A stretch of DNA of 64,000 bases from Bacteroidia bacterium (GTDB lineage: Bacteria; Bacteroidota; Bacteroidia; Bacteroidales; CAJPTX01): positions 2,060 to 66,059 of the forward strand of contig CAJPTC010000013.1 of assembly GCA_905373475.1 (NCBI GenBank). The letters run 5' to 3'. Within the stretch, counting starts at the first letter, position 1. Each line of letters starts with the position of its first letter. Below, piece by piece: positions 935-20,932 of this stretch. The position numbers and the translations under genes were made by a program. Under the pieces are notes generated by a model that did not search any database, was not told the origin of the DNA, and was given only the letters and a program-made list of their open reading frames with translations.

Positions 935-1180
935 ACACACTACCGCCGTATGACTTGGTTCTATGTGCCTTGCGATTATAGATTTAATCAGTGTGGACGA
1001 GGTTTTGTCACGTCGTGCCATGGCGAGCTGCTTTATATCTTGCTTTGCGCATTATCGCCCTGTACTGCGTTACACAATTTTTGATCGTATTGCGCCCGTA
1101 GCATAGCGTCATGGCACGACGTGACCTAGACAAATATTTTTGTCTAGGTCGTAGACCGACGGGTAGAACCCCATACGATG
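935..1180. repeat. Cluster of short palindromic REP-like modules (same family as 10.6-11.3 kb, 20.5-20.7 kb, 30.2-30.5 kb)
   Basis: CGTCGTGCCATGGCGAGCTG lies at 1011-1030 and CGTCATGGCACGACG at 1107-1121. A perfect 10-bp inverted repeat GACCTAGACA-N8-TGTCTAGGTC lies at 1123-1150. Degenerate copies of the CCGCCATACGGCGGGGTTCTAT module lie at ~941-965 and, inverted, at ~1161-1180. Confidence 0.5.
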
Positions 1181-1374: not shown

Positions 1375-4300
1375 ATGAGACGAGGTTTACTTTTGTTATG
1401 CTTCTTGAGCATTGGCTTGCTGCTCCATGCCCAAGAACCGATTCGTTTCGGAGATCGTGAGGTCTACCTAGAGGCGAATGTACACGCCAAGGTACGTGGA
1501 CACAAAACGTCTAGTTTGGAGTTGGGTGTTCCTACTGGCGAAAAGCTCAACGTGCTGGTTCAGTTTGGAGCTGAGGAAATCGCTTACGATGCGTTGAAGC
1601 AAAAAGGCGTAGAACTGGGCGATTACCTTGGAAGCAATGCCTACTATGCTCAAGTATCCCCAGGTAGCCGTCCGAGTGACTTTGTGGGTACAGGGCTTCG
1701 TACAGTAGTACCCATTCGTGGTGAGTGGAAGATGACTAGTAGTCTACTTCATGGAGCGCCCCCAGACTGGGCTTCGGCAGGCAATAAACTGAAAGTAACT
1801 CTTTCGTGGTTCAAAAGTGTAAGTGCTGACCGTATAAAAGCAGATCTAAGTAAGTGCGGCGTGGAGGTCGGAGCGATTTCAGAAATACTGCGCAATGTAG
1901 ATATCGTGGCAACACGCGAACAAATTCTTGCATTGGCAGAACTCGAGTATGTCTCATTGGTGCGATGGATAGAACCTCCTCTTGAGTTAGAGAATAGAGA
2001 AGGCGCGCGTTTAAGTGCAGCTGCCTCTTTGCGCATTCCGATAGCGCTTGGCGGACGCGGTCTCACGGGTAAGGACGTACGTGTTGGCATTTGGGATGCC
2101 AATGTGGGCGATCATGTAGATTATGGCGTGCGTGTACACCGCCAAGAATTTGAGATGGGAGGAAGCACGCATGGTATGCATACCACGGGTACAATTTTAG
2201 GAAGTGGACTGGTAAACGAGCGTGGACGTGGTATGGCTCCAGAGGCTGAGATCTGGACGAACAATTTCAATACGCAGTCCAATAAGAAGAAGGTGGCGCA
2301 AGAGATGTTAGAGACGTATCAGAAAGAACATATTACGCTAACCTCAAACTCTTATGGTTATCGCCTTATCGGGCTTTGTAATTTCGACGCATACCAGAAT
2401 TATACATTCCTAGGGAATACGGATATTGATAAGCTTGCCGCCCTGTACCCTGAGCTGACGCATGTCTATTCGGCAGGTAATTCTCAGGGAGAATGTGGTC
2501 GCTCTTTTTCGCATGCGACAAACTATGCTAAAAATATAATCTCGGTTGCGGCTCTCAATGCCTTGGGAGGTATGACCGAATTCTCGAGTTTCGGACCACT
2601 CTTTGACGGTCGTATGTTCCCCATAATAAGTGCGCGGGGCGAAAAAGTATTTTCTACTGTAGCAGGACAAGGGTATGCATTAAATAGTGGAACGTCTATG
2701 TCTTGCCCAACGGTGACAGGTCATTTGGCATTATTAACACAGCGCTGGATGCAGCTTCATGGCGGAGCGGCTCCCTACAATTATTTTTTGAAGGCGCTAA
2801 TAGCGAATACCGCACGCGATGCAGGAAACCCAGGCCCAGACTACAAGTTCGGCTTTGGAATTTTGGATGCAGAGGCGGCAGTAACGACCATGGAGAATGG
2901 TTGGTACAAACTTTCTGAGATGAAAATAGGAGAGACAGAGCAAGTCGCGACATTTAAGATTCCTGCGGGAGTAAAAGAGCTTCGTGTTATGCTGTGTTGG
3001 AACGACCCTGTCGCTGATAAGGACTATGCAAAAGGCGAGTGCCCACTTGTGAATGACCTAGACTTAAGTGTCAGTTTTGGTGCGCAAGCCTATTTACCGT
3101 TTACGTTGGATCCGTCTAATCCTGATGCAGATGCTGTGAATACAAAACCCAATAGGGTTGATAACATCGAACAAGTTGTGGTGAAAAATCCCGCAGCAGG
3201 CGATGTTGTTGTCAAGGTGTCGGGGGCTGTGAAGCAAGGCGAAAAACAGTCGTATGCGCTTGTATGGTACTGCGATTATAAAACGCCAGAGATATTCTCT
3301 CCGCTCCCGGGCGATACCTATTCGCCCAAAGAAGAGATTTATCTCCGTGCGGAGAACGTGTCGCCTAAAGTGCGCGTAGATCTCTCATCTGATGGCGGAA
3401 AATCATTTGTAACGTTAGGTACATTCGACAGATGCGCGGCTGTGCAACTCCCAGATAATATAGCTCCGACCGATAAAGCTGTGCTTCGTTTGACAGACGA
3501 GAATGGGGTAAGCATCTCTACTAAGGGCTATTTCACAATTCTGTCGCAAGTACACGGCGTTAAGCTGGAGGCTATGAGCTGCTCTACGTCTGGTTGGAAA
3601 CTTACTTGGCGTGAAGCTAAGGGCGCAACCCAATATGAGATCTTGCGCGCTGATATTAACAATGCCACGTACAAGAAGATCGGAGAATCTACGACTACCG
3701 AGTTCTTAATTCCAAAAGAATATGTGACCAATGAGCGCAACATCTATTCCGTGCAAGCTATTGCTGGTGAGATGCGTGCGCGCAGAAGTGTAGCAGTTGT
3801 ATCGGACAAAGTAATGCCAACACTTCTCACAGAAGCCGACTTGCCTTTTGTTGAGACTTTTATAGGTTTTCCTTTAACGCATACGGAGGTCGAGACAGGT
3901 GAGAATTTGGCACTTACTATGCAAGATGCTATTGTCGAGTTGCAACTTCCTTTTATGTCGCACCATGTTGTATGGCAAGCAAAAAATGAGGCGACTGACT
4001 GGCAGCACCCCTTCCAACAAAGAGACAATGTTGGTACACTCAAAGTATGTTCGCTCGATCTCTCAAAAGTGGCTAAAGGGACTCCCTTGCAGTTTTCTAC
4101 TTTTATGCTCATGCAGAAAACAAAGGATAACCCTAAAAATGGTTCTTTACTCCGATTGTTGGTAAACGGTGAGGAAGTGGAAGATGTCCTCGGACGTAAA
4201 CAAATCGTGGGCGATGGGAGTGAACATAATCTTGCTTGGGATTTAACAAGGTTTGCAGGACAAAAAATCTCTTTAACCCTTGAAACGGCATTGCAAAAGG

Positions 4301-7300
4301 ATGGGAATAATGCCATAATTGTTTATTACCAAATTTTTAAAAAAACGACTCAACCCGATGTGCAGATTGCGTGGGTAAATAATCCTGAAGTTGAGGCGAA
4401 GGCACAGATGCAGGAAGAAATCATCAATTTCAAGATTGTAAATAGTTCTTCGCTTGAGCTAAACGATGTACCTGTTTCGATTCAGGTAGATGGTAAGGTC
4501 GTTTATGCGAAGAATATAAAGCAGTTAAAACCATTTGAGGATCAGATTATTGAGTATTTGTACAATTTCGCGAGCGATATACCCCATAAATTTCGAGTTG
4601 ATGTACGTGCCGATCTACAAGATGACATAACACCTGAAGATAACACAGCACATTTTGAAGTCTATAACTTGGGGAATGTTATTGCAATGCCCGAGGTCTC
4701 TTACATAGACTTCTTGGGTGTACCGCTCCCTATAGTACCTCGCATAACCAAGACGCTAACAGGGGCAATTCCATTCACCGATGGTCGTGGTACACTTGCG
4801 CCTTACAATACTAATGAGAAGGCAATTCTAAAGGTTTTGCCTAGCGATCCGTCGCATGCTGTGCAAGTAACCTTTAGCGATATTAAGCTTGCGGCAAATG
4901 ATACTTTGTACGTCATAGCGGGCGATGTAGATAAGGAGTTGCGAGTGAATAGGAAGATGGCTACGAGTTTCCTCACTGGACAGATGGCGGCTCGCTCGTT
5001 CGTCTCCGAAGCGCGCGATGGTGGTATTACGTTTATGATGTTTGGGCATGACGATAATCCTGGCGAGGGGTGGATTGGCGAATTTAGTGAACTCTCAATG
5101 CCCGATTTATGGAAAATGAACTCTTTGCGCGAAGTTGCGGGCGCTGATCCTAATCATGTTAAATTAGAAGCGAAAGTCGAGAATTTGACGACTGTCTCGC
5201 TTCCTCACGTGGGTCTCTGGATAACAGCAAACGCTAAAACACGTCGAATAGAAATTCCTGAACTAAAGGCAAAGACGGAAACAACGTTTGTTATTCCTGA
5301 AGAGATAGATAAAACTGCTCCCGTGTACATAGAAATTGCAGCTGAATTGGCAAAAGATGGAGATCCGTCGAACAATAGGCGCAACCTTGTAATTGCCAAT
5401 GACCCGATTTGGAATGGAGGAGGTACGATTACGAATCCGAAGGCACTCTATCTCTCCGAGGTGCGTCTGGCAGGTGAAGGCGATACGATACAATTCCCCG
5501 CGAATACTCGCATCACCTATATGCCTCAAAAGAAGCTTAAGCTCTATAAGAGTAAAAATGCCCTACAACTAGTACTTTCTAAAGCTCCGACTGCTGCCCA
5601 AGCAGGGGCAAAACTCCGTGTGTGGGTAGATCTGGACGCTAACAATGACTTGGGTACAACTGTGCCTGAATTAGTTACAGCTGCGTTGGAAGAAGGTACA
5701 AAAGAATATTGGGTAGAACTTGATTATACAACTCTTGCCTCACTTACTGCAGGCGAACGTAGATTCCGTTTCATGCTTGCGGATGACGAAAACTACAATA
5801 AGTTCATTAGTGGTAAAGCTATGGCATGGGGAAGTGTAGCAGACGTTACCGCAGACATTAAGGGAGAGCCCAGCCCGAACGATTACGAAGTTGCCTTACT
5901 CTCGGTCGAAGGGGTGAAGAGTGGACGTGCTCTCTCCCATGCGACCGAACTAAAGGTAAAGTTGAAAAATAATGGTCTTGCACAGCTGTCGCAAGTAAAA
6001 TTGTCTTACCAAATAAATAAAAATACACCTGTGACAGAGACGCTTACTACATCTATCGCACCTCGTACCGAGGGGATTGTAACATTCAATACAAAGGCAG
6101 ACTTGAGTGCGATTGGTAAGCACAAGATTACGGTGAAGCTCGAGGAAAAAGATCTTAATGAGAAGGACAACGAGGTTGCGAAAATTGTTTATAAGATAGC
6201 ACCCAAGAATACCGACAAACTTTTCGCATTGAACTTTGAAGGATCTTCCGAAGAGGGCATGCTCTTCCCAAAAGTTGACAAACAAATTGTAAACACTGCT
6301 ACGATCGAGGGGTGGTGGAAACTCGACGGAACACAGTTTGCGCAATATATTAGCGGCGAAGGAATCTTTTTAGTGGCAGTTGCGGGGTATGCACAAATCC
6401 CTGACAATACATTAGCACTCGTGGCAGGGCGATATTCTCAATTCACAAGTACAAAGCCAGTTGTGAAACCTGGACAGTGGCAACACATTGCCGTTACACT
6501 CAATCAAAAGAAGGCTTCACCAAACGACTGGAGTTTTACGACTACCATAGAGGTTTACGTGGACGGCGAAAAGATCGAAATGAAGCGCGAGGGACGTGAC
6601 GGTTTCTTCTTCAAGAATTTTGCACTGAATCATCCGATAAAAGGACAAAATGCGATGTTCCGAATTTGGAACGTAATCCGCACAGAGGATGAAATTAAGG
6701 CAAACATGAGTAAGACTGTACGTACGGGGGCAGATTTGGTTCTACCCTCGGGATGTGTAGGCGAGTATATCTATACGGAGGGACAAGGGAAAGCATCTGA
6801 ATACGGTGATGATGGTGTGTTTACAGCAATAGTGTCTGAGCGCGAAAACGTATGGCAGCCTATTAAAAATACAATTGCGAATATCGAAGTTGAGGGACAA
6901 CTAATCCCCGTTGCCTACAGCTCGGCAGAAGCACAGGTTACTATGCCACAAGACTTTGCCGATTTTGCAAATGTGAAAGTGAAGTTTACGCCAGATTGGC
7001 CAGGTACGAAGATCCAATTCAATGGTTCGGATATTACAGAGGGACAGGTCTTTGATTTCAGTAATGCTGATCACAAACTCACATTCAAGGCAACAAAGTC
7101 AGATCTTTTTGGCTTAACGCTGCAACAGGAGGTTACGGTGAAGCTCGTAAATGACCTATCCAATGCTTGCGATATAGTAAAGCTCTCTGTGCTAAAAAAC
7201 CAAAATAGTGGATTGAAAAAGGATCTTGTCATTCCAAAACCAGAGGAAACGGTTAATCTGGAAGCACAAGATGAATCGGCTACAAGTAAGCTCGATATAA

Positions 7301-10300
7301 CAAATGTGACATTAGTAGTGAACGAGATCTCGCCCAATGCAAAACTTTACAAGGACGATAAGGAGATTGCAGTGGGTAGCGATATAAAGCTCGATCTGAG
7401 TACGTCACAGACGTTGCGAGTAGAAGCACAGAACAAGCGTGATGTGAAGTATTACACCATACGTATGTCAATGTTGCAAGAGCTCACTTGGAGCAGTGAG
7501 AAGATTACGCGACCATTTACTTCTGAGGTATTGCCACTGGATGCCACGGCCTCTTCGGGGTTGAAAGTAAAGTATGTGAGCGAAAACCCATCAGTGGCTA
7601 CTATAGATGCTCATGGTAATTTGTACACCACAGCTGTTGGTACTACCAAGATATTTGCTGTACAGGAAGGCAATATGCAGTATAAAGCAGCAGACAAGCG
7701 TGAGCGTGAAGTAGAAGTGACGCGTGTGCCTCTAACAGTAAAGATGTTACCTACCACGATGGCGGAAGGCGACACATTACCCAATTTCAAGTTTGAGTAT
7801 GACGGTTTGCAGTTTGCAGGTACAGAATACCAGTTTGATACCGAGTATGTGGTGAAAATGGCAGATGGCAATGTTTGGAATCCGACAATGCCGCCGCTAG
7901 CTATAGGCGAGTATACAGTGGTCGCTAAAGGTTATACTGAGCCGTATGAGTTCAACAATTATACAGTAACACGTACAGAGGGGAAACTAACGGTTACAAA
8001 TGCTGAAAAGGCGCGTCGTGTAACACTTACAGTGAAAGATGAACAAGGAGCTGCGCTTAAGGACGTAACGGTGCAGTGTGGGCAGATTACGCAGACAACA
8101 CAAGACGACGGACGCGTTCAGTTCCTCCTATTACCAGGCAAGTATACTGTTATGGCACAGCACGAAGGTTATACAACGGGACAAGAGACCTTTATAGTGA
8201 AAGGACGCTCATTGCAGTTCGATTTACAGCTCCGCAAACTAGTGTATACATTATCTTACAAGGCGGATGCTAACGGTATGATTCAAGGCGCTAAAACACA
8301 AAAGGTGGTTGCTGGAGGCGAAGGCAAACAAGTGGTTGCTGTTCCGCAGAATCTTAAGTATAAGTTCAAACAATGGTCGGATGGAAGCACGCTTGCAGCA
8401 CGCACTGATAAAGATGTAACTAATAATGTAGATGTTACGGCTACCTTTGAACCAGTGCTTTACAAGCTGACTTACGTCATTGGAAAAGGCGGGATAAAGG
8501 TTTCGGGCGACCTTGAGCAGGTTATACAACCTGGTGAAAATGGAACTCCTGTCGAAGTAAAGGCTGCAGAAGGGTACATATTTATGGGTTGGTCGGATGG
8601 GCTGATGTCGGCTACACGAACAGACATGAATATTACCCAAGATATAAAGCTAGAAGCACGCTTCTTCAAAGCGTACCTGATTACGTGGGGCGAAGACTTC
8701 GAGAGTGGCGAAGAGTGTCTCAGCGCTTGGAGCTTTCCCACGCCTAATGAAGGTTTTGGTTGGACATACTCTGAACGTCTTGACATTAGAGAAAATACGG
8801 GAGCGGAAACGGGGCATGCGCTTTTAATCGACTCGGATCGCGATTGGGCGTGGAATGAAGAAACTTCGGCAATTTCGCCGTGGATGACTCTTGCAGGACG
8901 TGTGGCAGGCTCAAAGGTTGTGGTCTCTTTTGCTCGGAATTACATACAGGCTGAAACTACAGATGAGGCTAAAGCGCAGTACTGTTTTGAAGATGGAGAA
9001 TGGCATGATGGCATCGAATTAACACCAGCAGATGACGGCTCATTGATGTCGTTTGAGATAGACGATGCGACACTTGCAACTCATAAGTTCTTACGTCTGA
9101 GATGGTATCTCACGAACCCCGAATCGATGGATGCGCTTGTAGCCATAGATGATATCAAGGTGAAATACTCGCCAGATCCTACTGATGTCGTATTACGATA
9201 CATTGCAGGCGAACACGGTAAACTCCAAAAAGAGGGGAGTGCTGAGCCAGAAAAGGTGCTAGAGTTCACGACAACGGCAGGCACTTTAGGTACAAAAGTG
9301 ACAGCTATGCCTGATGCGGGTTACGTCTTTGACAAATGGTCCGATGATAAAACGACAGAGAATAATCGTCAAGATGATGCTGAGGTTTTGGTATATGCTT
9401 CCTTTAAGCCAGCTCCCAAGACGCTGTATACTGTTTCCTACAGTGCAAGAGCCAATGGTGAGCTACGTGGGTTGTTATATCAACGTGTAGCTGTAGGCGA
9501 GAAGAGCACACCTGTTGTGGCAGTTGCCAATGAAGGTTATCAGTTTGCACAATGGTCTGATGGTTCAAAACAAAATCCGAGAACTGATATAGTAAATGAG
9601 GATGGCAAACTCTATGAGGCGGAATTTTCGGTGAAGCCACCTGTTTATACGCTAACCTACGTGGCAGGCGAACATGGCGAAGTTACGGGCAATCTGTTAC
9701 AAACTGTAGAGGCTGGTAACAATGGTACTGAGGTAATCGCTATTGCCGACGACGGTTACCACTTTGTGAAGTGGGACGATGGTATTACAACTGCCAGACG
9801 TACTGAAACCAATGTACAAGCCAGCAAGGTGTATGCTGCACAGTTTGAAGCCGATGTGAAGACATTCGCCGTAACACTTAAGCATGACGGTGAAGGAGAG
9901 CTGAAGATAACAGGCATAGAAGAAAGTAAACTGAATGCCGTTCCTGAAGGCACTGAACTCACGGCAGTGGCAACGCCTGCAAAGGGTTGGAAGTTGAAGA
10001 GTCTTACGGCGGGTACACAGGACATCTCGGCAGACGGTAAGTTCACGGTAACTGCCAATGTTGAGGTGAAGGCAGTATTTGAAAAAGAAGGTGCTCCGCA
10101 GCCCACAACATTCGCCGTAACACTTAAGCATGACGGTGAAGGAGAGCTGAAGATAACAGGTATTGAAGAAAGTAAACTGAATGCCGTTCCCGAAGGCACC
10201 GAGCTCACAGCAGTAGCAACGCCTGCAAAGGGTTGGAAGTTGAAGAGCCTTACGGCGGGTACACAGGACATCTTGTCAGACGGTAAGTTTACCGTAAACG

Positions 10301-10593
10301 CGGATGTTGAGGTAAAGGCAGTGTTTGAAAAGACTACTTCTGTGGAGGATGCAATGCTTGCTAACGTGTTAGTAGCGCCCAATCCGTTTACAACGCAGCT
10401 CTGTCTGGTATGCAACGGTGCAACAGGTCGTTATGTCTTACTCAATGCACATGGCATAGTAGTACGCAGTGGTAATGTGGATGGTAACGAGGCACTGATT
10501 GAAACAACCGATCTTACTTTTGGTCTTTACCTTTTGCGTCTTACTGCCGAAAATGGTACAACGAAGACAATAACAGTCGTAAAAGAGCGATAA
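1375..10593 (+). CDS. Giant (3,072 aa) multidomain subtilase-family (peptidase S8) surface protein with T9SS C-terminal sorting domain, paralog 1
   Basis: Single uninterrupted 9.2-kb ORF with signal peptide MRRGLLLLCFLSIGLLLHA|QEP. The S8 motifs appear in order: GIWDANVGDHVDYG (Asp241, nt 2095-2097), STHGMHTTGTILGSG (His266, nt 2170-2172), LTSNSYG (oxyanion Asn) and GTSMSCPTVTGHLALL (Ser441, nt 2695-2697). By-eye domain map, approximate nt: P-domain-like ~2940-3290 (LCWNDP..VNDLDL..NRVDNIEQV); FN3-like ~3550-3800; CARDB-like ~4380-4680 and ~5860-6190; LamG/ConA-like ~6235-6700 (WQHIAVT..VYVDGE..FRIWN); Big_2-like ~7480-7740; MBG-like ~7740-8000; CarboxypepD_reg-like ~8020-8240; Listeria-Bacteroides (InlB B-type) repeats ~8245-8680 and ~9185-9850 (WSDG..RTD..A.F); MAM/choice-of-anchor-J-like ~8680-9170; 2 x 82-aa module 9865-10330; T9SS CTD ~10340-10590 (VAPNPF..GLYLLRL..KTITVVKER). 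Confidence 0.9.
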   Translation: MRRGLLLLCFLSIGLLLHAQEPIRFGDREVYLEANVHAKVRGHKTSSLELGVPTGEKLNVLVQFGAEEIAYDALKQKGVELGDYLGSNAYYAQVSPGSRPSDFVGTGLRTVVPIRGEWKMTSSLLHGAPPDWASAGNKLKVTLSWFKSVSADRIKADLSKCGVEVGAISEILRNVDIVATREQILALAELEYVSLVRWIEPPLELENREGARLSAAASLRIPIALGGRGLTGKDVRVGIWDANVGDHVDYGVRVHRQEFEMGGSTHGMHTTGTILGSGLVNERGRGMAPEAEIWTNNFNTQSNKKKVAQEMLETYQKEHITLTSNSYGYRLIGLCNFDAYQNYTFLGNTDIDKLAALYPELTHVYSAGNSQGECGRSFSHATNYAKNIISVAALNALGGMTEFSSFGPLFDGRMFPIISARGEKVFSTVAGQGYALNSGTSMSCPTVTGHLALLTQRWMQLHGGAAPYNYFLKALIANTARDAGNPGPDYKFGFGILDAEAAVTTMENGWYKLSEMKIGETEQVATFKIPAGVKELRVMLCWNDPVADKDYAKGECPLVNDLDLSVSFGAQAYLPFTLDPSNPDADAVNTKPNRVDNIEQVVVKNPAAGDVVVKVSGAVKQGEKQSYALVWYCDYKTPEIFSPLPGDTYSPKEEIYLRAENVSPKVRVDLSSDGGKSFVTLGTFDRCAAVQLPDNIAPTDKAVLRLTDENGVSISTKGYFTILSQVHGVKLEAMSCSTSGWKLTWREAKGATQYEILRADINNATYKKIGESTTTEFLIPKEYVTNERNIYSVQAIAGEMRARRSVAVVSDKVMPTLLTEADLPFVETFIGFPLTHTEVETGENLALTMQDAIVELQLPFMSHHVVWQAKNEATDWQHPFQQRDNVGTLKVCSLDLSKVAKGTPLQFSTFMLMQKTKDNPKNGSLLRLLVNGEEVEDVLGRKQIVGDGSEHNLAWDLTRFAGQKISLTLETALQKDGNNAIIVYYQIFKKTTQPDVQIAWVNNPEVEAKAQMQEEIINFKIVNSSSLELNDVPVSIQVDGKVVYAKNIKQLKPFEDQIIEYLYNFASDIPHKFRVDVRADLQDDITPEDNTAHFEVYNLGNVIAMPEVSYIDFLGVPLPIVPRITKTLTGAIPFTDGRGTLAPYNTNEKAILKVLPSDPSHAVQVTFSDIKLAANDTLYVIAGDVDKELRVNRKMATSFLTGQMAARSFVSEARDGGITFMMFGHDDNPGEGWIGEFSELSMPDLWKMNSLREVAGADPNHVKLEAKVENLTTVSLPHVGLWITANAKTRRIEIPELKAKTETTFVIPEEIDKTAPVYIEIAAELAKDGDPSNNRRNLVIANDPIWNGGGTITNPKALYLSEVRLAGEGDTIQFPANTRITYMPQKKLKLYKSKNALQLVLSKAPTAAQAGAKLRVWVDLDANNDLGTTVPELVTAALEEGTKEYWVELDYTTLASLTAGERRFRFMLADDENYNKFISGKAMAWGSVADVTADIKGEPSPNDYEVALLSVEGVKSGRALSHATELKVKLKNNGLAQLSQVKLSYQINKNTPVTETLTTSIAPRTEGIVTFNTKADLSAIGKHKITVKLEEKDLNEKDNEVAKIVYKIAPKNTDKLFALNFEGSSEEGMLFPKVDKQIVNTATIEGWWKLDGTQFAQYISGEGIFLVAVAGYAQIPDNTLALVAGRYSQFTSTKPVVKPGQWQHIAVTLNQKKASPNDWSFTTTIEVYVDGEKIEMKREGRDGFFFKNFALNHPIKGQNAMFRIWNVIRTEDEIKANMSKTVRTGADLVLPSGCVGEYIYTEGQGKASEYGDDGVFTAIVSERENVWQPIKNTIANIEVEGQLIPVAYSSAEAQVTMPQDFADFANVKVKFTPDWPGTKIQFNGSDITEGQVFDFSNADHKLTFKATKSDLFGLTLQQEVTVKLVNDLSNACDIVKLSVLKNQNSGLKKDLVIPKPEETVNLEAQDESATSKLDITNVTLVVNEISPNAKLYKDDKEIAVGSDIKLDLSTSQTLRVEAQNKRDVKYYTIRMSMLQELTWSSEKITRPFTSEVLPLDATASSGLKVKYVSENPSVATIDAHGNLYTTAVGTTKIFAVQEGNMQYKAADKREREVEVTRVPLTVKMLPTTMAEGDTLPNFKFEYDGLQFAGTEYQFDTEYVVKMADGNVWNPTMPPLAIGEYTVVAKGYTEPYEFNNYTVTRTEGKLTVTNAEKARRVTLTVKDEQGAALKDVTVQCGQITQTTQDDGRVQFLLLPGKYTVMAQHEGYTTGQETFIVKGRSLQFDLQLRKLVYTLSYKADANGMIQGAKTQKVVAGGEGKQVVAVPQNLKYKFKQWSDGSTLAARTDKDVTNNVDVTATFEPVLYKLTYVIGKGGIKVSGDLEQVIQPGENGTPVEVKAAEGYIFMGWSDGLMSATRTDMNITQDIKLEARFFKAYLITWGEDFESGEECLSAWSFPTPNEGFGWTYSERLDIRENTGAETGHALLIDSDRDWAWNEETSAISPWMTLAGRVAGSKVVVSFARNYIQAETTDEAKAQYCFEDGEWHDGIELTPADDGSLMSFEIDDATLATHKFLRLRWYLTNPESMDALVAIDDIKVKYSPDPTDVVLRYIAGEHGKLQKEGSAEPEKVLEFTTTAGTLGTKVTAMPDAGYVFDKWSDDKTTENNRQDDAEVLVYASFKPAPKTLYTVSYSARANGELRGLLYQRVAVGEKSTPVVAVANEGYQFAQWSDGSKQNPRTDIVNEDGKLYEAEFSVKPPVYTLTYVAGEHGEVTGNLLQTVEAGNNGTEVIAIADDGYHFVKWDDGITTARRTETNVQASKVYAAQFEADVKTFAVTLKHDGEGELKITGIEESKLNAVPEGTELTAVATPAKGWKLKSLTAGTQDISADGKFTVTANVEVKAVFEKEGAPQPTTFAVTLKHDGEGELKITGIEESKLNAVPEGTELTAVATPAKGWKLKSLTAGTQDILSDGKFTVNADVEVKAVFEKTTSVEDAMLANVLVAPNPFTTQLCLVCNGATGRYVLLNAHGIVVRSGNVDGNEALIETTDLTFGLYLLRLTAENGTTKTITVVKER
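9865..10330 (+). repeat. In-frame tandem duplication (2 x 246 bp = 82 aa) inside giant gene 1
   Basis: FAVTLKHDGEGELKITGIEESKLNAVPEGTELTAVATPAKGWKLKSLTAGTQDI(S/L)(A/S)DGKFTV(T/N)A(N/D)VEVKAVFEK occurs twice, with copy starts at 9865 and 10111. The copies differ mostly at synonymous third positions. The same module is nearly identical at nucleotide level in genes 2 and 3. Confidence 0.9.
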
Positions 10594-10596
10594 TGA

Positions 10597-11308
10597 GGTT
10601 CGTAGGGGCGAGGTGCGCCTCGCCCGAATAGAAAACATTGATTTCGTCCAACGTTTTACATTGGGCTAAAAATACCCACCACCGCCATACGGCGGGGTTC
10701 AGTTTGAGCCCCTTAATGGGGCGAGTCTTTTTAGCACGGTGGTAAGACCCCGTGCGTATCTCGATACGCCAAGCGCTCATATTCGCCCAACGTCTCACAT
10801 TGGGCTAAAAATACTCACCGCTGCCATTCGGCGGGGTTCTACGCGCATAGCGATTATTTCACGGTGTGACGTGGCGGGCGAGGCATGCTTTGCCCCTACA
10901 GTCGCGCTGCTGGCGCGAATCCGCAATGCGACTTTGTTTTTCGCACTGAAAGTGCAATACAATCTAGCCCAAGGCAGCGCCTTGGGTTACGATACCACAA
11001 GACCGATGCGCCCTGTAGGGGTAGCACATTGAAGCCTAATGTTTTGCATGATGCCGCCCAACGTTTTACATTGGGCTAATGATACCCACCGCCGCCTTTG
11101 GCGGGGTTCTATGACGGCGTGCCAAGGCGCGCCGCTACACGTACCTTGCTTTGCGCATTATTGCCTGTACTTTTCGTCTTGAAAGGGTAACACATTGCAG
11201 CCTAATTTTCACATTGGGTAATAGTCCTCATCTCTGCCGTTTAATGGGGTTTCTATCACGCCGTGTCATGATACGACGTGAAATAGACCAACAGACTTAA
11301 AATTAGTG
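10597..11308. repeat. Patchwork of REP-like palindromic modules filling the gene1-gene2 spacer
   Basis: - GCCCAACGTTTYACATTGGGC hairpins at 10646-10666, 10785-10805, 11056-11076 and (degenerate) 11201-11219.
- CCGCC-loop-GGCGGGGTTCTA modules at 10682-10700, 10818-10840 and 11089-11110.
- ACGGCGTGCCAAGGCGCGCCGCTACACGTA at 11111-11140.
- Post-stop hairpin GGGCGAGG-TGCG-CCTCGCCC at 10606-10625, with an inverted copy at 10876-10900.
- Module TGAAAGTGCAATACAATCTAGCCCAAGGCAGCGCCTTGGG at 10947-10986, whose reverse complement recurs at 30396-30435. Confidence 0.75.
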
Positions 11309-11529
11309 TGTAGAGACGAGGCATGCTTTGTGCAGTTTCCTCGTGCAATTTATTCGTAGAAATGCAAACATCAAAAGATATTAATACTCTGATTTACAAC
11401 TACATTTTAAACCTCGAATACATAAATTTTTGCAGAAAAGCAATACGAATACCGAAAGATTTTACTTTTCTTTTGATAAAAGGCGCTAACTTAGTTAGCA
11501 TAGATATTAACTAATTGTATAGAGAACAG
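11309..11529 (+). promoter_or_regulatory. Conserved upstream/leader region of giant subtilase gene copy 2
   Basis: Near-identical to 20727-20932. It reads TGTAGAGACGAGGCATGCTTTGTGCAGTTTCCTCGTGCAATTTATTCGTAGAAA.GCAAAC ... TAATACTCTGATT ... AATACGAATACCGAAAGATTTTACT.TTCTTTTGA.AAAAGGCGCTAACTTAGTTAGCA ... TAACTAATTGTATAGAGAACAG-ATG. It contains an ACGAGG..CCTCGT inverted repeat. Confidence 0.5.
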
Positions 11530-14500
11530 ATGAGACGATCTTTACTTTTGTTACTCTTTTTGAGCATTGGTTTATTGCTTTATGCACAAGAGCCAGTTCG
11601 TTTTGGAGACCATGAGGTTTACCTAGAGGCGAATGTTCACCCACCACGGCGTAACTATAAGACATCTAGCTTGGAATTAGGCACGCCGGCGGGTGAGAAA
11701 CTCAATGTCTTGGTGCAGTTCAACACCGCTCCGATCTCCCAAGAGGCGCTTGCGAAAAAAGGTGTTGTGTTAGGCGATTATCTGGGAGGTAATGCTTACT
11801 ATGCTCAAGTAACCCCAGGTAGCCGTCCTAGCGATTTTGTGGGTACTGGGCTTCGTACGGTAGTGCCGATACGTTCAGAGTGGAAGGTGGTAACAGCGCT
11901 CTTACAACATAAGATACCAACTTGGGCACGTCAGAATGACAATATTCGTATGCGCCTCTCATGGTTCAATTCGGTTTCGTGGGAACAAGTAAAAATAGAA
12001 CTAGACCGTATTGGTGTTTCTTATCGTGCTAATTCGCTTTTTTTCAAAAATGTAGAAATAGAGGGTTCGTACGAACAGATATTAGCACTTGCCGAGTACG
12101 AGGGCATCGCTTTTATTCAATATTGTAAACCTCCTGAGGTGCTTTCCAACTATCATGGAGCTCGTTTGAGTGGTGGTTCTCTACTTAGTCGCCCTACGTC
12201 GTTATACGGTCGTGGTCTTACGGGTAAAAATGTTCGTATCGGGATTTGGGATGCTAACATAGGCGACCACGTGGATTATGGTACACGTGTACACAATATG
12301 GAGTTCGAAGATCCTATCATAGAAGCAGGCTCGCATGGGATGCATACGTCTGGTACTATTGTAGGAAGTGGTTTGTGCGATGAACGCGGACGCGGTCTTG
12401 CGCCTGCAGCACAACTTTGGGCATATAACTTTGGAAACGGTCTCAATGGTAAATCCTCGGCACTAGAGATGTATGAGACTTATATAAAAGAACACATCTC
12501 GCTTACTTCCAATTCGTATGGTTACGCACTTGCAGCCTTTTGCGAATACGAGTCTTTTTTTACCTACACAGAGCTTGCCAATATAGATGTTGACTACCTC
12601 GCTTATTATATACCAGACCTTACACATGTCTTTGCGGCAGGAAATGATCAAGACGAAACCAGATGTGCACTAGAATGGAGTCATGCTACTAACTATTCCA
12701 AAAATATAATCTCAGTTGGGGCGGTAAATACGGAAGGACGCATAACGAGTTTCTCTAGTTTTGGTCCACTCCGCGATGGACGTTTGTTTCCTATTATAAG
12801 TGCACGCGGCGAAGAGGTATATTCTACCATATATGGGCAGGCATATAAAGCAGAAGATGGAACTTCGATGGCTTGCCCGACTGTTACAGGACACCTAGCA
12901 TTGCTCTCCGAGCGCTGGATGCAGTTACACGGAGGTGCTGCACCTTATAATTATTACCTAAAAGCCTTGGTAGCTAACACGGCACAAGATGTTGGCAATC
13001 CTGGTCCCGACTACAAATACGGTTTTGGGATCTTGGATGCGGAAGCAGCAGTCGTTGCTTTGGAGAATAATTGGCATGCACTTAAAGCGTTAGAGCAGGG
13101 CGGAGCAGAACAAGAAATAAAAATAACAGTTCCTGATGGAGTAAAGGAGTTGCGTGTGGCTTTGTGCTGGAGCGATCCTGTAGTAAACAAGGAATACGCG
13201 TACGGTGAGTGTCCCATAGTCAACGACTTGGATTTAACACTCCATGCGCAAGGGAAAATGTACTATCCGTACACTCTAAACCCAGCAGAACCACATCTTC
13301 CTGCTGTTGCTACGCAACGAAACAAAGTGGACAACATCGAGCAAGTCCGCATACTTGCCCCCACCGCAGGAGAGTGCACAATTAAGGTGGGAGGAACAGT
13401 GCGACAAGGTGCAAAACAACCCTACGCCGTAGTTTGGTACTTTGACTACCAAAAGCCAGAAATTGTCTCTCCACAAATAGCCGATATCAATTCACCAGAT
13501 GAGGAGTTGTATCTCCATACGAAGAATATGATTGCTCCTCTTCGTGTCGAATTGTCTACGGATGGCGGCAAGAGCTACGAAGTTCTTGGTCAGTTTGCGA
13601 ATAATTCGGTGTTTACTCTTCCTAGTCCTATTGTAGCTACCAACAAGGCAAGTTTGCGTGTAATAGATGCGCAGGGGCTGATTGCAACTACAGCAGGCTA
13701 TTTTACCATAATGCCTCGGGTACAAGACTTGCAACTTACTAGTGCACCTTGTTCCACTTTGGGCTGGCAGTTAGCTTGGAATGCTGTCGACGAAGCTGCG
13801 AAATATAAAATACTCCGTGCTGACCTAGAGAAAGAAACCTACAACGAAATTGCAGAGGTGGAGGGTACGACTACTACTTACGCTTTACAGGACAATCAAG
13901 TGAGTGCAGCGCGCAATATGTATGCAGTGCAAGCTATAAGTGCAAGTGGGCTATGTGGTGCACGCAGTCGAGGGGTAATTACGAACCAACCGCAACCAAA
14001 GGTGCTTACCTTAACTGATTTGCCTTATACTGAAACGTTTGTCGGGTGGCCTATGCAGCACGTAGCTGTTATAACAGGGTCTAAACTAGAGTTCAGTGTA
14101 CAAGAACCACATCCGCGTTGGGGCTTCCCACTTAAGTCACAAATGATCGCTTGGGAAGGAAAGAGCGATGCGCCTGATTGGGATAAGCCTTTCGAGCAGC
14201 GCGACCATGTAGGCTCAATTTCTGCCTGTGGAATAGATTTGACAAACATTCCTCTTGGTACGCAGCTACAACTTGTCTCCTACTGTTTGCTAAAGAAACC
14301 TAAAGAGGACGGACAAGTAGGATCATTGCTTCGCGTTCTGGTGGACGGAAAAGAACTAGCAGATGAGCTTGGACGCGAAGTTATCGAGGGGGATGGCGAT
14401 GAGCATCGTATTGCATGGGATATAAGTAAATATGCGGGTGAGAAAATTGCACTGAACTTCGAAGCTGCCTTAGCGAGCGATGAGGACGGAGCAATTATAG

Positions 14501-17500
14501 CTTACTACCAAATTCTACAAAAGACCGACCGCCCCGATGTAGGTATCGCATGGGTAAATGACCCAAAGATTGATGACATGGCAGACATGCATGAGGAGAC
14601 TATTCGGTTCTCTGTGCAGAATTATTCAACGTGTGAGGTAAAAAATGTGCCTGTCTCGGTGCTTGTCGATGATAAGTTGGTTTATACCAATGTTTTTCAA
14701 ACATTAAAGCCCTTTGAAGGGCGGACTGTTTCGTATAAGCACGACTTTACGAGTCAAGAACCTCACAAGTTTAATGTGCGCGTCCGTGCTGAGATAAGTG
14801 GCGACATTGACCCAACGAACAACGAGAAAGAGTTTGAAGTTTACAATATTGGCAATGTCATCGCAATGCCCGAGGTGGTCTATTTTGAATTCTTCGGTCA
14901 GAGCATACGAAAAGTGCCTTATATCTCCCGAAAAATAAATGGTAAACAGCTTTTTGTAGACGGGCGAGGTGCACTCGAACCCTACAAAACCGATCAGGAA
15001 GGTGTATTGCAGATAGTGCCTACGGCATCGAACAGAATAGTGCAGGCTACCTTCCGAGAGTACGATTTGGCAGAAGGAGATACCTTGGCTATTTTCACGG
15101 GGAATGTGCCAACGAACTTAAAAGTAGCACCGCGTAACGCACGAATCAAGCTTACGGGGAAAAGTACAACTCCGCAAGTGTTTGTTTCTGAAGCCGACAA
15201 TGGTGGGCTTACATTCTGTTTTGTGGGTTACAATGAAAGAACTACAGCTGGTGGCTGGATTGCTGAAGTCCAAGAGTTTGAAGCCGAGAATCAGTGGAAA
15301 CTAGAGAGTCTCATAACAGTAGATGGCGAGGAGGTGAACTCCAAAAAGGTGCAAGCAACAATAGAAAATCTATTACCTGTAGATTTGTACAATGTGGGCT
15401 TATATGTTACTGTAAATGGCATGTTTGAGCGTTATACCATCCCAGTTCTGAAGGCTAGTAATCAAACTATTTATACGTTACCGCAACAGTTTAATACAAC
15501 GCCACCTGCACGATACGAAATTGTTGCACAATTGGTAAAAGATGGAGACGTGAGTGATAATGAGAAAAAACTCACTCTCGAATATGATCCGTTGTGGCAC
15601 AACGGAACGATAGCAGCTCCTGAAAAACTGTACATTGCTAGCCTCCGAACCGTAGATAGCAGTACAGTACAAATACAGTCGCAGGCGAAAGTAAATTATA
15701 TGCCTCAACATATTGTACCTCTCTATATGCAGAGCAATAATGTGGTGTGGCTTACGCTCTCGGGCAAACCAACAACGAACGAGCTACCATCGCAGCTCAG
15801 AGTTTGGATAGATGCCAACGACAACAATACTCTCGAAGATGCCGAACTTACAATGGTCGAAGTTGTTGCCAATAAATTGGAGTATCAGATTGCATTTAAC
15901 CTTTCAAATTTCCCAGAAATCAAGGTAGGGAAACATCGGATGCGTCTAATGCTTTCTACCGAAAGCGACTACCAGAAATTTGTAATAGGCGAAACAATTG
16001 TATGGGGGCATGTGGTAGATCTTACGGCAGACGTAAAAGATGGAAACAATCTATATGATTATGAGCTCTCGCTCGTCTCTCTCGTTGCTCCTGTGACAGG
16101 ACACTCTCTAACGGGGGCTGAAAAGGTAACAGTGCGTGTACGCAACAACGGTGTTGCCCCACAAAAGAATGTAGAGCTGGTGCTTACGGTTGATGAACAG
16201 GAAGTGGCTACTGAGAGCATCCCATGTGCACTTGCGGCTGTAGGTGGAGAGGCGGAGTTGTCTTTTTCCAAGCCAATAGATCTGAGTGCGCAGGGCAAAC
16301 ATCTGATAAGTGTAGCACTGAAAAACGCTGATAACAATACTAAGGACAACGAAATAAAAGAGCGCGTCTTTAATATTGCTCCGCAGACAAATACTATTTA
16401 TGGTCTCTCGTTTGTTGGCAATGAGCGCGAGGCAATAGAATTGCCACTGCAGGGGCACAATGTAGATAAGGAATGCACCATTGAGGGGTGGTGGTTGCTT
16501 AATAAACCACAGCGTTGCGAACTCGTAAATGAGGAGGGTATTTGGTTAGCATCGCTTGCTGGCAGTGACCAGTTCCCTGACAATACATTAGTCTTTATGG
16601 CGGGTAACAGCGGGCTACTGCTTAGCAAAACACCTGTACTCAAACCTGGGAAGTGGCAGCATATTGCTGTCTCCATGAAAGTTGCATACGGCTGGAGCGG
16701 CGAAATGACCACTCATCCTACAGTCTATATCGATGGCGAGCTTGTAGAAATGGAACGGTATGGCAATGGTATACTCTCTTTCAAAAACTTATTGCTAAAC
16801 GTCAAGTTTGATGGGCAACTTGCCATGTTCCGACTCTGGAACAAGGAACGTGGTTCAGCTGACCTCCTACAAAATATGACAAAAAGTGTACGTACCGCCG
16901 ATAACAAGTTACCGTCCGACTGTGTAGGTGAATATATTTTTACCGAAGGACAAGGTATAGCATCGGCTTATGGGCAAGGGCGTTATGCTGTAATTCATAG
17001 CCAACGTCCTGATGTTTGGAACCCCATTCAGCGTATTGTAGCAAGTGCACATATGGAAGGCGAGAAAGTGCCTCCGCAATATGTGGAGACCAACAAAATA
17101 AAGATTATAGTTCCCACCGATTTCACAGAGTTCGATAAGGTAAAAGTAACGTTCGATTTGGACTGGCTCGGTGCTACCGTCTCGCATAATGGAACAGTAG
17201 TACTTCCAGAAACGGAGTTAAATTTTGAAACGAGCTCCGATCATACATTACAATTCAAGGCGGAAAAGAAAGATTTCTTCGGTGCCACTCTGGTTCAAGA
17301 GTTCTCTATAAAATTGGAGAATGATGCATCTGGAGCTTGCGACTTGGTAGAACTCGCTATGCAAAAAGCGGACAATCCTGGACTGAAAGATGAAATACTT
17401 TTGACAAACTGCGATCAAACGCTTAAGCTGAATGTAAAACAGGAGGGTGTTACCCCAATAGATGTGCGTAACCTCAAATTGGTAGCTAAACAGCTATCGC

Positions 17501-20500
17501 CTGGTGCAAAGCTCTATTATGAAGGACGCGCTATAGAACCCAATACTCCGTTTGTTGTAGATTTTAGTGTGCCAGTCTACTTACGCGTTGTTGCACAGAA
17601 TGGACGCGACATTAAGTATTATACACTGACCCTCGCAATGGAACAAAACATACAGTGGGGGACGGAAAAAATTACACATGTATTTACTAAAGAGCCCCTT
17701 CTGTTGGATGCTAAAACTACGTCGGGGCTTCCTGTGCAGTACATTTCAGCCAATCCGTCGGTGGTAAGTTTTGATCCCGACGGAAAGTGTATTGTTGCAG
17801 GAGTGGGGACTACTACAATTCGGGCAACGCAAACAGGCAATGCACAGTATCTCGCAGCATCTTCAGTGGAACGCGCAGTAGAGATTACACCAGCTCCGCT
17901 TACAATTAAAATGAAAGATGCGCGTATGGCACAAGGCGACCCGATGCCCGAATTTGAATTCGAGTACGAGGGTTTACAGTTTGAGAATACGCAGTATAAG
18001 TTTGATATCCCTTACGAAATACTGGATGCTAAAGGGCTACCTTGGGAAGGAACAGAGCAGCTTGCGCAAGGTGAATATGTGGTCAGACCGAAGGGTTACA
18101 CCGTACCAGTTCGTCGCGATAACTATCAGGTAACCTACAATAATGGTAAGCTAATAGTAGCGCCCGCAAGCGCTGCACAGAAGGTCACTTTTAAGGTGAT
18201 CGATGAGACAGGGAATGTATTACCCAACATTGCATTGAAATGTGCTCAATATCGTCTACAAACGAATGAAAATGGGATAGCCGAGCTGTATCTAACGCCT
18301 GCTACTTACCAAGTATATGCTCGCAAAACAGATTATGCGACTGCGAAGGTGGAATTTGTTGTGACGAATCAAGTGCAAACGGTACATGTGCAGCTTCGCA
18401 GGCTTGTACATGAACTATCGTACACAGCCGATGCATTTGGCGTAATACAAGGTAAAGCGACACAGCGGGTTGCAAATGGAGGAAATGGTGAGCGAGTAAT
18501 TGCAGTGCCCATTACTCCATCTTATCGCTTCAAGCGGTGGTCGGATGGTTCTACAGAGGCATCTCGTGTCGATATGAACGTTACGAAGGGTATAGCGGTC
18601 AGGGCAGAATTTGAAGAAGCCTCCTACACCCTATCTTACAAGCTTGGAAAAGGGGGAAAATGGGTCGCTGGACAACAAACGCAAACGGTACAACACGGGA
18701 AAAATGGTACATCTGTCGAGGTTGAACCGTTAGATGGTTGGGTTTTCATTGGTTGGTCGGATGGTAATGAAGATGCTATGCGCACGGATACGGATGTTGT
18801 AAAAGACATTGACGTAGAAGCTCAATTCTTCAAACCACATCTGCTTACATGGACTGAGAATTTTGACCTTGGGGATGACGTATTACGATACTGGTTCTTT
18901 GATGTACAAAGCGAAGGCGAAGGTTGGAAACTAGTACCCAGCAAAACTGTGCTAGGGGCTGCAGCTGAAGGTGAAATATTGAAAATTGAACCAGTAGGAC
19001 AAAATCCGTTCTATCACGAATGCTTTGTAGAAACCCCTTGGCTTTCGTTGGCGGGAAGATCTGCTGCGGGCGGTGTAAAGATAAGTTATGACCTCTATTA
19101 TAAGAAGGCGCGTAACACAAGTGCTGTGCTTGAGTATAGTTTTGATGAAGAAGATTGGACTTCGATCGAAGAGCTAGAGGAAGGTTCTGGAACGAGGAAG
19201 ACATCTGTAATTCCTGATGGCAATCTTGCAGGCAATGATTTTATCCGTTTCCGTTGGGTGTTTACAAGCGAGAATTTCAATACCTACCTTGCTATAGACA
19301 ACATTTCGGTATCGCTCGATCCGCAACCTGAGGAGCAAACCATGTTAAGATATTTTGCAGGTGAGCATGGTAAGTTGATGGTAGAAGGCGAAACAGAAAA
19401 GGTAAAGACTGTTGAAGTGCAAACTAAGAAGGGCGTAGACGGAGCAAAGGTTACAGCAGTGCCAGATGCTGGTTACCTCTTCGATAAGTGGAGCGATGGG
19501 AAAATGGAAGCAACACGTCAGGATCAGCAGTTACCTGTTACTGTGGGGGCATTTTTCAGACGTCAACTCAAAATACAGTATACGCTAAGCTACAAAGTGA
19601 AAGGAAATGGAATTCTGGAAGGAGTCTTATACCAGCGCCTTGAAGAAGGTGAGATGGGGACACCAGTGTATGCACGTCCTAGCGAAGGAAACAAATTTGT
19701 CCGTTGGTCGGATGGCGTAACAGACAATCCGCGTTCCGATGTAGCTACTGCTACTACTACGTACGAAGCAGAGTTTGAAGTAGATGCTCCTAAAAGATTC
19801 GTCGTAACGCTTGCGAAAAAAGGAGAGGGCGAGCTGAAGATAACGGGCATAGAAGAAAGTAAACTGAATGCCGTTCCCGAAGGCACCGAGCTCACGGCAG
19901 TGGCAACGCCTGCAAAGGGTTGGAAGTTGAAGAGCCTGATGGCAGGCACGCAGGACATCTCGTCAGACGGCAAGTTCACGGTAACAGCCAATGTTGAGGT
20001 GAAGGCAGTGTTTGAAAAAGAAGGTACTATTCCGCAACCCACAACTTTCGCTGTAACGCTTAAGAAAGACGGTGAAGGAGAGCTGAAGGTAACAGGCATT
20101 GAAGAAAGTAAATTGAATGTCGTCCCTGAAGGCACTGAACTCACGGCAGTGGCAACGCCTGCAAAGGGTTGGAAGTTGAAGAGCCTTACGGCGGGTACGC
20201 AGGACATCTTGTCGGACGGTAAGTTCACGGTAACAGCCAATGTTGAGGTAAAGGCAGTATTTGAAAAGAGCACTTTTGTGGAGGATGCAATGCTTGCTAA
20301 CGTGCTTGTAGCGCCCAATCCGTTCGATAATCAATTACGAATTGTAAACGGTGATTTACGAGGGGAATACGCGCTATTGAATGCACAAGGTGCTGTAGTA
20401 CGTAGTGGCAATATGGCTGGTAACGAGGTACTGATTGAAACAAGCGATCTTACTTCGGGGCTCTACCTCTTGCGTCTTACTGCCGAAAATGGTGCAACGA

Positions 20501-20529: not shown

Positions 20530-20532
20530 TTT

Positions 20533-20726
20533 GTAGGGGCAAGGCGTGCCTCGCCCGAATGAACGCATTGATAATCAATGATAACGGGCATGACTTTCGG
20601 GTTGTGCCCGTTTTTGATAGGTTTTCGCCCAACGTTTCACATTGGGCTAAAAACACCCACCACCGCCATACGGCGGGGTTCTATTACGGCGTGCCATGGC
20701 GCGCTGCTACACGTATTAATGTGTTT
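20533..20726. repeat. REP-like palindromic modules in the gene2-gene3 spacer
   Basis: TGTAGGGGCAAGGCGTGCCTCGCCC hairpin at 20533-20556; GCCCAACGTTTCACATTGGGC at 20627-20647; CCGCCATACGGCGGGGTTCTAT at 20663-20684; ACGGCGTGCCATGGCGCGCTGCTACACGTA at 20686-20715. The module order matches 11056-11140. Confidence 0.75.
20585..20615 (+). terminator. Putative intrinsic terminator downstream of giant gene 2
   Basis: CGGGCATGAC-TTTCGG-GTTGTGCCCG stem (with G-U pairs) followed by TTTTT. A homologous hairpin plus T-run lies at 30286-30317 after gene 3. Confidence 0.55.
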
Positions 20727-20932
20727 TGTAGAGACGAGGCATGCTTTGTGCAGTTTCCTCGTGCAATTTATTCGTAGAAACGCAAACGAAAATATATAAT
20801 ACTCTGATTGATAATAATATTTTTCGTTTCATATACATGTTTTCTTAGAAATACGAATACCGAAAGATTTTACTCTTCTTTTGACAAAAGGCGCTAACTT
20901 AGTTAGCAATTAACTAATTGTATAGAGAACAG
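20727..20932 (+). promoter_or_regulatory. Conserved upstream/leader region of giant subtilase gene copy 3
   Basis: Near-identical to 11309-11529 (see that feature) and shares its blocks with 1181-1374. Confidence 0.5.

Follow-up and report, generated by a model that had tools for sequence, protein, structure and literature searches.

What are the long intergenic spacers around the giant genes of an uncultured Bacteroidales bacterium, and by what route did the same short hairpins come to be repeated in them? The stretch of DNA analyzed here (the window; 64,000 nucleotides) corresponds to positions 2060-66059 of contig C13 in the source assembly G000, a 2.5-Mb genome in 54 contigs with a GC content of 46.6% (C plus a number denotes a contig throughout). 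It carries three head-to-tail genes of approximately 3,000 codons (1375-10593, 11515-20529, and 20918-30172), which are members of a protease gene family of the type IX secretion system (T9SS); in giant gene 1, a subtilase head is combined with a T9SS sorting tail. Approximately 22 genes of at least 2,900 codons are present in G000, corresponding to about 8% of the 2.5-Mb genome, and those that were inspected end in a T9SS-type C-terminal tail. A first-pass annotation of the window had described the spacers as strings of about five short palindromic modules belonging to a dispersed family, rather than as products of simple duplication of the gene unit. Our analysis leads to a more defined answer, to which we assign a probability of roughly 0.8: the spacers are mosaics, similar to bacterial interspersed mosaic elements (BIMEs), of a family of repetitive extragenic palindromic (REP) sequences whose own transposase is encoded in the genome.

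Recurring hairpin modules account for approximately 90% of the spacers at 10594-11142, 20530-20714, and 30173-30510. With nhmmer profile models, the named modules cover ~89% of the first and ~88% of the second, and the modules of the first follow each other as D> AB> M7> AB> D< F> E> AB> C>. Either strand of 10594-11145 forms a much more stable fold than shuffled sequences do, with z values of -6.9 and -6.7. The remaining distal part of a spacer (e.g., 11300-11514) is a 5′ leader common to the gene paralogues; because a decayed D heads this conserved leader, each giant-gene copy is bracketed by D-type sequence. The spacer at 935-1180, which had been described in the same terms as the other three, holds decayed copies only (a B with three mismatches and an 85% inverted C-like pair), and a BLAST match to it was not found elsewhere. 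All five modules originally listed (A to E) were recovered at their reported places, and none of them is expected in shuffled sequence. D occurs in both orientations, at 10602 (+), 20533 (+), and 10876 (-), with a further, compensatory variant at 30181 (+); E lies at 10947-10986 (+) and 30396-30435 (-) with no mismatch to the pattern first given for it; and the C palindromes are present at all four places listed in Table 1. The number of modules had been underestimated, as we counted at least 13 types, and A and B form a single 60-nt unit (A+B). Five of the six A copies that had been claimed are clear (two or fewer mismatches; 10646, 10785, 11056, 20627, and 30329; none expected), but the sixth, near 11207, is degenerate. 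B had been placed always 3′ of A; each of its five copies does have a clear or decayed A directly on its 5′ side, and the A at 30329 has no B behind it.

The modules are not confined to this locus, as they would be under the purely local duplication that the first-pass annotation had named as refuting its reading. A profile search of G000 found 355 non-overlapping copies of 13 module types, which amount to 14.3 kb on both strands in 96 islands of up to 1.1 kb, in agreement with the idea of a dispersed family used in both orientations. Nine of the 96 islands are located inside open reading frames (ORFs), and the others are intergenic or at contig ends. C has approximately 33 copies, H approximately 42, and A+B 33. 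A module lies within 300 nt of 35 of the 108 contig ends, indicating that the repeats break the assembly; with a third of the contig ends sitting in these repeats, the fragmentation of this metagenome-assembled genome (MAG) is explained. Beyond G000, the 547-nt spacer core has matches in the genomes of five of 13 congeneric species, and 27 further families of the order gave no match. Exact module A is present in one other species-level MAG, a search of 300 other Bacteroidales genomes gave no module D, and no paper with the D sequence came up in the literature.

Three of the modules, D, C, and H, are REPs, that is, GC-rich palindromes tagged with GTAG. GTAG is the commonest tetramer 5′ of perfect hairpins with stems of at least 8 bp, occurring in 67 of about 1000 flanks, where we would estimate about four if the 256 tetramers were equally frequent, and nearly all of these 67 hairpins are module D (TTGTAGGGGCGAGGCRYGCCTCGCCC). 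G000 has 102 D cores with two or fewer substitutions, of which ~60 are perfect; a one-sided GTAG tag is present on 77. In 13 cases, neighboring D copies form an inverted pair with the tags outward, 63-391 nt apart, resembling REPINs (inverted REP doublets). The foot of the D stem consists of three G-C pairs, and occasional double-foot copies have the form GTAG...CTAC (e.g., C1:205002). The C hairpin is 91% paired, with two pairs changed on both sides, and it carries GTAG on the complementary strand, followed by CGGCGCGCC..GGCACGCCG. The third GTAG-tagged type, H, occurs outside the window. A GTAG-tagged REP signature with dimers in opposite orientation, located mostly downstream of ORFs, was described by Di Nocera et al. 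2013 (PMC3733652), whose survey recorded GTAG repeats for Proteobacteria, Cyanobacteria, Chloroflexi, and the PVC group; Bacteroidetes yielded CGTC repeats only.

A gene for a REP-associated tyrosine transposase (RAYT), encoding a 180-residue protein, was recognized among the ORFs beside D-dense islands on contig C20 (45692-46233). The protein matches NF047646, 'REP-associated tyrosine transposase', with an E value of 2.8e-19 and 69.4 bits (equivalog cut-off 80), and aligns to Escherichia coli TnpA-REP (4ER8; E value 6e-5) at the HUH and catalytic Tyr motifs. Its motifs are PNHIH, AWQ, and YIRMNP, the last of which differs from the YIxNNP consensus at one residue. The gene has a D-bearing island on either side, at distances of 45 nt upstream and 27 nt downstream, and an in-frame D copy (VGARHASP) is located between the HUH and Tyr motifs. 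The cognate transposase that the first-pass annotation had proposed looking for is therefore in the genome, flanked by D and containing D. A second RAYT copy (C2:165227-165283) is truncated where its contig ends. An alternative reading, in which the family is an orphan without an enzyme, had been drawn from a negative Pfam Y1_Tnp search of G000 and a tblastn search of G000 with the subclass-1.2 Y1 protein of a congener, which gave no match; it was overturned by the RAYT beside the D-dense islands. The Pfam search missed this protein because its score of 18.6 bits falls short of the cut-off, 23, and the low family scores are probably due to the in-gene REP insert, which splits the domain. In TnpA-REP subclass 2.4 (Quentin et al. 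2018; PMC6006769), which occurs abundantly in the Cyanobacteria and the Bacteroidetes, the proteins have the motifs NH[IFV]H, WQ, and YIxNNP as well as REPs inserted in frame in the stretch that separates the HUH motif from the Tyr motif, and the REPs are either long, with a foot of three G-C pairs, or of 'double-foot' form. Judged by its motifs and in-gene REP, the G000 RAYT appears to fit this subclass of class 2.

D and RAYT co-occur across the genus. With two or fewer mismatches, D has 90 copies in G000; in the congeneric genomes, it has 23 in G005, 15 in G011, 3 in G008, and none in nine others. A RAYT of the G000 type is present in G000 and G008, with fragments in G011, and it was not found in G005, a 64%-complete genome. 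All three D copies of G008 are at the RAYT, two flanking it and one inside. Between G008 (C1:70177-70716) and contig C20 of G000, identity over the 664-nt RAYT unit is 96.8%, whereas chromosomal genes of the two species are 65-84% identical, which points to recent horizontal transfer. A different Y1 protein was encountered in the congener G003 (C20:22600-23461). It has 152 amino acids, belongs to subclass 1.2 (DHVH, WQ, YIEKQEEHH), and is flanked by M7-like and B-like hairpins, with a 43-nt hairpin unit directly repeated on both sides; subclass 1.2 is described as lacking typical end structures. This protein was considered as the enzyme of A+B and rejected, as the congener G010 has a similar Y1 without modules and G000 has modules without such a Y1.

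Table 1. Hairpin modules, terminators, and decayed copies in the spacers of the window.
Feature	Position	Strand	Remarks
Decayed set	924-1150		Degenerate B at 943-963; inverted C-like pair at 1007-1032 and 1100-1125; 12-bp palindrome at 1123-1150
Module D, GTAG-tagged REP hairpin	10602-10625	+	GTAG followed by GGGCGAGGT/GCCTCGCCC; 8 nt past the stop of giant gene 1
A+B unit, copy 1	10644-10701	+	Two hairpins, ~60 nt
Module M7	10704-10782	+	Three small hairpins; T-rich tail on the first (10708-10722)
A+B unit, copy 2	10783-10841	+	
Module D, inverted	10876-10900	-	Outward-tagged REPIN-like doublet with 10602-10625, 250 nt apart
Module F	10900-10936	+	hpR-type hairpin TCGCGCnnnnnGCGCGA; comes after D-CTAC genome-wide
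Module E	10937-11053	+	Core 10942-10986 matches RF01687 Acido-Lenti-1 on the minus strand
A+B unit, copy 3	11055-11112	+	
Module C, second GTAG-tagged REP type	11114-11142	-	Minus-strand tag, GTAG followed by CGGCGCGCC...GGCACGCCG
Decayed E and A+B copies	11175-11251	+	nhmmer 16-19 bits
Decayed D, right arm lost	11306-11331	+	19 of 26 positions; opens the 5′ leader of the giant-gene paralogues
Module D	20532-20556	+	3 nt past the stop of giant gene 2
Module T, intrinsic-terminator hairpin	20576-20620	+ (sense)	11-bp stem and T run
A+B unit	20624-20684	+	
Module C	20685-20714	-	GTAG on the minus strand
Decayed D, as at 11306-11331	20724-20750		Opens the 5′ leader
Module D variant GGGGGGAGGCG/CGCCTCCCCC	30181-30204	+	Compensatory C-G to G-C; 8 nt past the stop of giant gene 3
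C-type GTAG hairpin TGTAGCGTCGTG..CGCGACGCC	30244-30275	+	
Module T, terminator hairpin	30280-30322	+	
Module A without a following B	30329-30349	+	
Module E, inverted and truncated	30341-30436	-	
C-type GTAG hairpin, perfect palindrome CGTCGTGCCATGGCACGACG	30480-30507	+	

Module D is especially dense in phage-like DNA that was assembled together with the rest of G000. Contigs C49 and C51-C54 encode terminase, head protease, tape-measure-like, and DUF3310-like proteins as judged by sequence inspection, and the phage-like end of C25 (34900-40221) encodes a primase. D occurs at 1.24/kb in these contigs compared with 0.028/kb elsewhere, and D elements lie between nearly all of their genes. A typical unit there consists of a left hairpin, D, J, D′, and a right hairpin, and by eye appears co-oriented with the flanking genes. 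The D-J-D units are bounded by inverted repeats and are 100-180 nt long, a layout that would also suit classical miniature inverted-repeat transposable elements (MITEs) moved by a DDE transposase through 25-nt terminal inverted repeats. We regard this origin as very improbable. The 'terminal repeats' are GTAG-tagged hairpins, and single hairpins are common; no target-site duplications are visible at the flanks of the units; and no insertion sequence with D-type ends was present among the inspected ORFs around D-dense regions, where a RAYT with D around and inside it was seen in place of a full-length insertion sequence.

Some copies in the phage-like contigs are translated in frame, giving repeat-derived peptides such as GARHASP and VTSDELRVTSE. 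In a DnaG-type primase, a D-centered palindrome with heptamer arms adds approximately 55 residues just before PKYxNSP in the catalytic domain, a place occupied by 0-3 residues in solved primases. That REPs can lie in frame within replication genes has been documented previously (PMC3733652). The exact 24-nt D sequence is also found in 27 viral contigs of IMG/VR, which have 54-71% GC and come from many samples, often beside other GTAG hairpins. This occurrence and the high density of D in the phage-like contigs would be expected if the family were phage-borne, comprising regulatory units akin to the promoter/stem-loop cassettes that T4-type phages carry, with the chromosomal copies being secondary. 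Such an origin is nevertheless highly unlikely in our judgment. The contig that encodes the RAYT looks chromosomal, and the RAYT has T9SS and housekeeping genes next to it; each viral contig has one to seven GTAG hairpins, and a RAYT is absent from the stretches examined; G008 has the RAYT with only three local D copies; and the in-frame copies in phage proteins resemble insertions and not regulators. A broader proposal is that the REP-RAYT unit of this genus is actively and horizontally spreading rather than anciently domesticated, with phages as possibly a main sink of REPs and perhaps a carrier; the identity of the 664-nt RAYT unit, the density of D in phage DNA including the primase, and the presence of D in 27 unrelated viral contigs led us to this proposal, which we offer as a speculation with the odds against it.

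D is also read through in a multi-copy family of N6-adenine methyltransferase-like proteins of approximately 830 amino acids (motifs DCAAGTGNLL and NPPY), which has no Pfam match. Copies are located at C20:46721-49189, C2:162339-164858, and C12:55650-58205, and N-termini at C5:~31700, C31:~8700, and C18:~32300. D is in frame at the same codon (HVIAGEACLAPTEGRE) in every copy, the C-terminal halves diverge, and two of the copies are directly downstream of a RAYT. The solitary D copies in C5, C31, and C18 had been considered as clean insertions; they occupy this same codon of the multi-copy gene and are not independent events.

Gene duplication has contributed to the present distribution. Approximately 16 T9SS paralogues share a 3′ cassette in which a GTAG hairpin of the D, H, or C type comes 3-11 nt after the stop codon, with more hairpins behind it in some cases, and is followed by T and then A+B. 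Such flanks contain 17-18 of the 33 A+B copies and most T copies, and a paralogous locus on contig C1 matches 10594-11140 at 84% identity (BLAST, query positions 49-547). The flank copies of A+B and T are best explained by cassette duplication and gene conversion. The original preference for dispersal over simple duplication thus holds for the family but went too far in the case of A/B, T, and the post-stop hairpins, which belong to the 3′ flanks of paralogues. In the extreme case there would be no mobile family at all, and the modules would be flanks of giant T9SS genes spread by duplication and gene conversion alone, as the shared cassette, the C1 locus, and the decayed D that opens the common 5′ leader might suggest. 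This explanation seems to us improbable, since D, C, H, J, and I occur far from T9SS genes (in phage-like contigs, in unrelated ORFs, at the RAYT, and in divergent and convergent spacers), D lies beside different neighboring genes in other species, and the in-frame primase insert already argues for insertion unrelated to T9SS paralogues. Module T stands apart from the other components. It has an 11-bp stem followed by a T run, is 96.6% paired with four compensatory pairs, has G-U pairs on the sense strand, and, wherever it adjoins genes, is always sense-oriented. We therefore class T with the ordinary intrinsic terminators and not with the mobile modules. Through T, the terminator role that had been suggested for the spacers gains support.

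Could the modules instead be functional RNA genes or cis-regulatory RNAs under selection, with their repetition being secondary? Module E brings this question up most directly. Its core at 10942-10986 matches the motif of the candidate small RNA Acido-Lenti-1 (Rfam RF01687; Weinberg et al. 2010, PMC2864571) on the minus strand with 29.7 bits in a permissive search, below the gathering score of 37, and Rfam at the gathering threshold gave no match in the whole window. One E copy, at C12:58400-58444 of G000, exceeds the gathering score with 39.9 bits, and other copies score 30.9-31.6. A preprint reports Acido-Lenti-1 downstream of T9SS KLIKK proteases in Tannerella (10.64898/2026.02.09.704811). 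In addition to these matches, pairing is kept through compensatory changes, and the composites of left hairpin, D-J-D, and right hairpin were co-oriented with the flanking genes wherever they were inspected by eye. Several observations are difficult to reconcile with selected RNAs: the two strands fold equally well, modules lie on either strand relative to genes and also inside ORFs, and copy content varies between 97%-identical strains. Conservation of the hairpins is equally expected from recognition of single-stranded DNA by a Y1 transposase. On balance, an RNA-based explanation is unlikely, and for E the data suggest that Acido-Lenti-1 in Bacteroidales can be a brick of a repeat mosaic and not a free-standing small RNA. 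Readings of the modules as integron attC sites, CRISPR-like repeats, or tRNA-like elements were rejected on the basis of unfitting core motifs and layout, with Rfam as the only formal search.

The islands are subject to change. When sister islands are aligned, entire modules prove to have been gained or lost at places bounded by short direct repeats, a pattern indicative of slippage or recombination; the E core sits between two similar small hairpins, and A between two half-copies. Upstream of the orthologous susC gene in the 92-94%-identical G005, a different neighbor and different modules (I, J, D, and a right-flank hairpin) are present, and the same site has no modules in G008 or G003. In a metagenome contig 97% identical to G000, ~560 nt of the C20 island are gone between the same flanking genes. 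The presence/absence polymorphism that the first-pass annotation had proposed to look for is therefore real both between strains and between species. Larger rearrangements are also indicated. Two inverted mosaic islands of ~1 kb, C2:27322-28375 and C20:40491-41592, are 88-90% identical, and contig NODE-119 of ERZ1033933, which comes from a strain with 94-98% identity, joins the left flank of the C20 island to that of the C2 island through one island. Inversion by inter-island recombination would give this joining and is its probable cause; an assembly error would give it as well. Such island rearrangements in related metagenome contigs lend support to the role as recombination sites that had been put forward for the modules.

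Based on these results, we propose the following origin for the REP mosaics. The class-2 Y1/HUH RAYT encoded at C20:45692-46233 is the probable mobilizing enzyme of D, C, and H. E. coli TnpA-REP binds a folded single-stranded hairpin together with GTAG and cuts and rejoins single-stranded DNA (PMC3479197, PMC8266576); by analogy, the G000 enzyme would bind the folded single-stranded hairpin with its GTAG tag, cut and rejoin single-stranded DNA, and thereby seed new copies. The flanking hairpins and the modules A+B, M7, E, F, I, and J are, in this view, accessory hairpin motifs that travel with the REPs, as the non-REP motifs of E. coli BIMEs do. After seeding, most changes of the islands would be due to slippage, deletion, and homologous recombination between short repeats, and the islands would also be substrates for gene conversion and large rearrangements. 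The cassette of stop codon, GTAG hairpin, T, and A+B would have been copied along with the T9SS protease genes, with T ending transcription. A REP located between the stop codon and T would lie in the 3′ untranslated region (UTR), where it might protect the mRNA or damp translation. In E. coli, REPs in the 3′ UTR protect mRNA from 3′ exonucleases or damp translation, and Liang, Rudd, and Deutscher reportedly described an effect of stop-codon-proximal REPs on translation in 2015. A further idea, as speculative as the active spread of the REP-RAYT unit proposed above, is that the post-stop REP hairpins of the ~16 giant T9SS genes might act as a shared post-transcriptional brake and, at the same time, as a handle for gene conversion.

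Several observations weigh against a RAYT-mobilized REP family. The RAYT scores below the curated cut-offs of both NCBIfam (69 vs 80 bits) and Pfam (18.6 vs 23 bits). Many copies are explained by paralogy, namely those in the 3′ cassettes, and the same is true of at least six methylase-like copies with D at the same codon. Neither a clean pair of an empty and a filled site for a single D nor a target-site rule was found. Finally, A+B is present in G003, which has neither D nor this RAYT; therefore, A+B is not tied to this enzyme.

Assignment of the spacers to a REP family with its own transposase connects what would pass as anonymous intergenic 'filler' of uncultured Bacteroidales with a defined mechanism, a subclass-2.4 REP/RAYT system. 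Strains and species differ at these repeats by the gain and loss of modules, by changes in neighboring genes, and by a probable inversion between two 1-kb islands. The results also carry a warning for annotation, as the Pfam Y1_Tnp model misses the RAYT and spurious peptides such as GARHASP and GEACLAPT derive from hairpins.

A REP/BIME-type family with a RAYT is a kind of system already described for Bacteroidetes at the transposase level, and its side features are interesting and not unprecedented. The G000 family shares with the GTAG super-family (PMC3733652) the tag, the opposite dimers, the position downstream of ORFs, and the in-frame copies in replication genes; it differs from that survey in placing GTAG repeats in Bacteroidales, where CGTC alone had been recorded. 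The elements of TnpA-REP subclass 2.4 (PMC6006769; group 4 of Bertels) agree with ours in the GTAG tag, the long REP with its foot of three G-C pairs, the occasional double-foot copies, the ~180-aa Y1 protein, the in-gene REP, and the gene-flanking REPs. Unlike the published members of that subclass, the present system has two RAYT copies, its REPs are set in unusually rich mosaics, and its 664-nt unit, 96.8% identical across species, behaves as horizontally mobile. The BIMEs of E. coli (PMC2817692, PMC8266576) are similar in their clusters of alternating REPs, the conserved non-REP motifs between them, their intergenic sites, often directly behind genes, and their variable copy content, but the islands of G000 contain far more accessory motifs (at least ten), most of which are hairpins, extend to 1.1 kb, and are associated with another class of RAYT. 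The E core has both hairpins and the GGCUA..UU linker of Acido-Lenti-1 (PMC2864571); in contrast to the Rfam entry, E is one brick of a mosaic, occurs in both orientations, and is sometimes truncated. The D-centered palindromes read through in phage primase, RAYT, and methylase-like genes all lie outside the window; they resemble the Rickettsia palindromic elements and other in-frame REP insertions, and differ from them in their hosts and element sequence.

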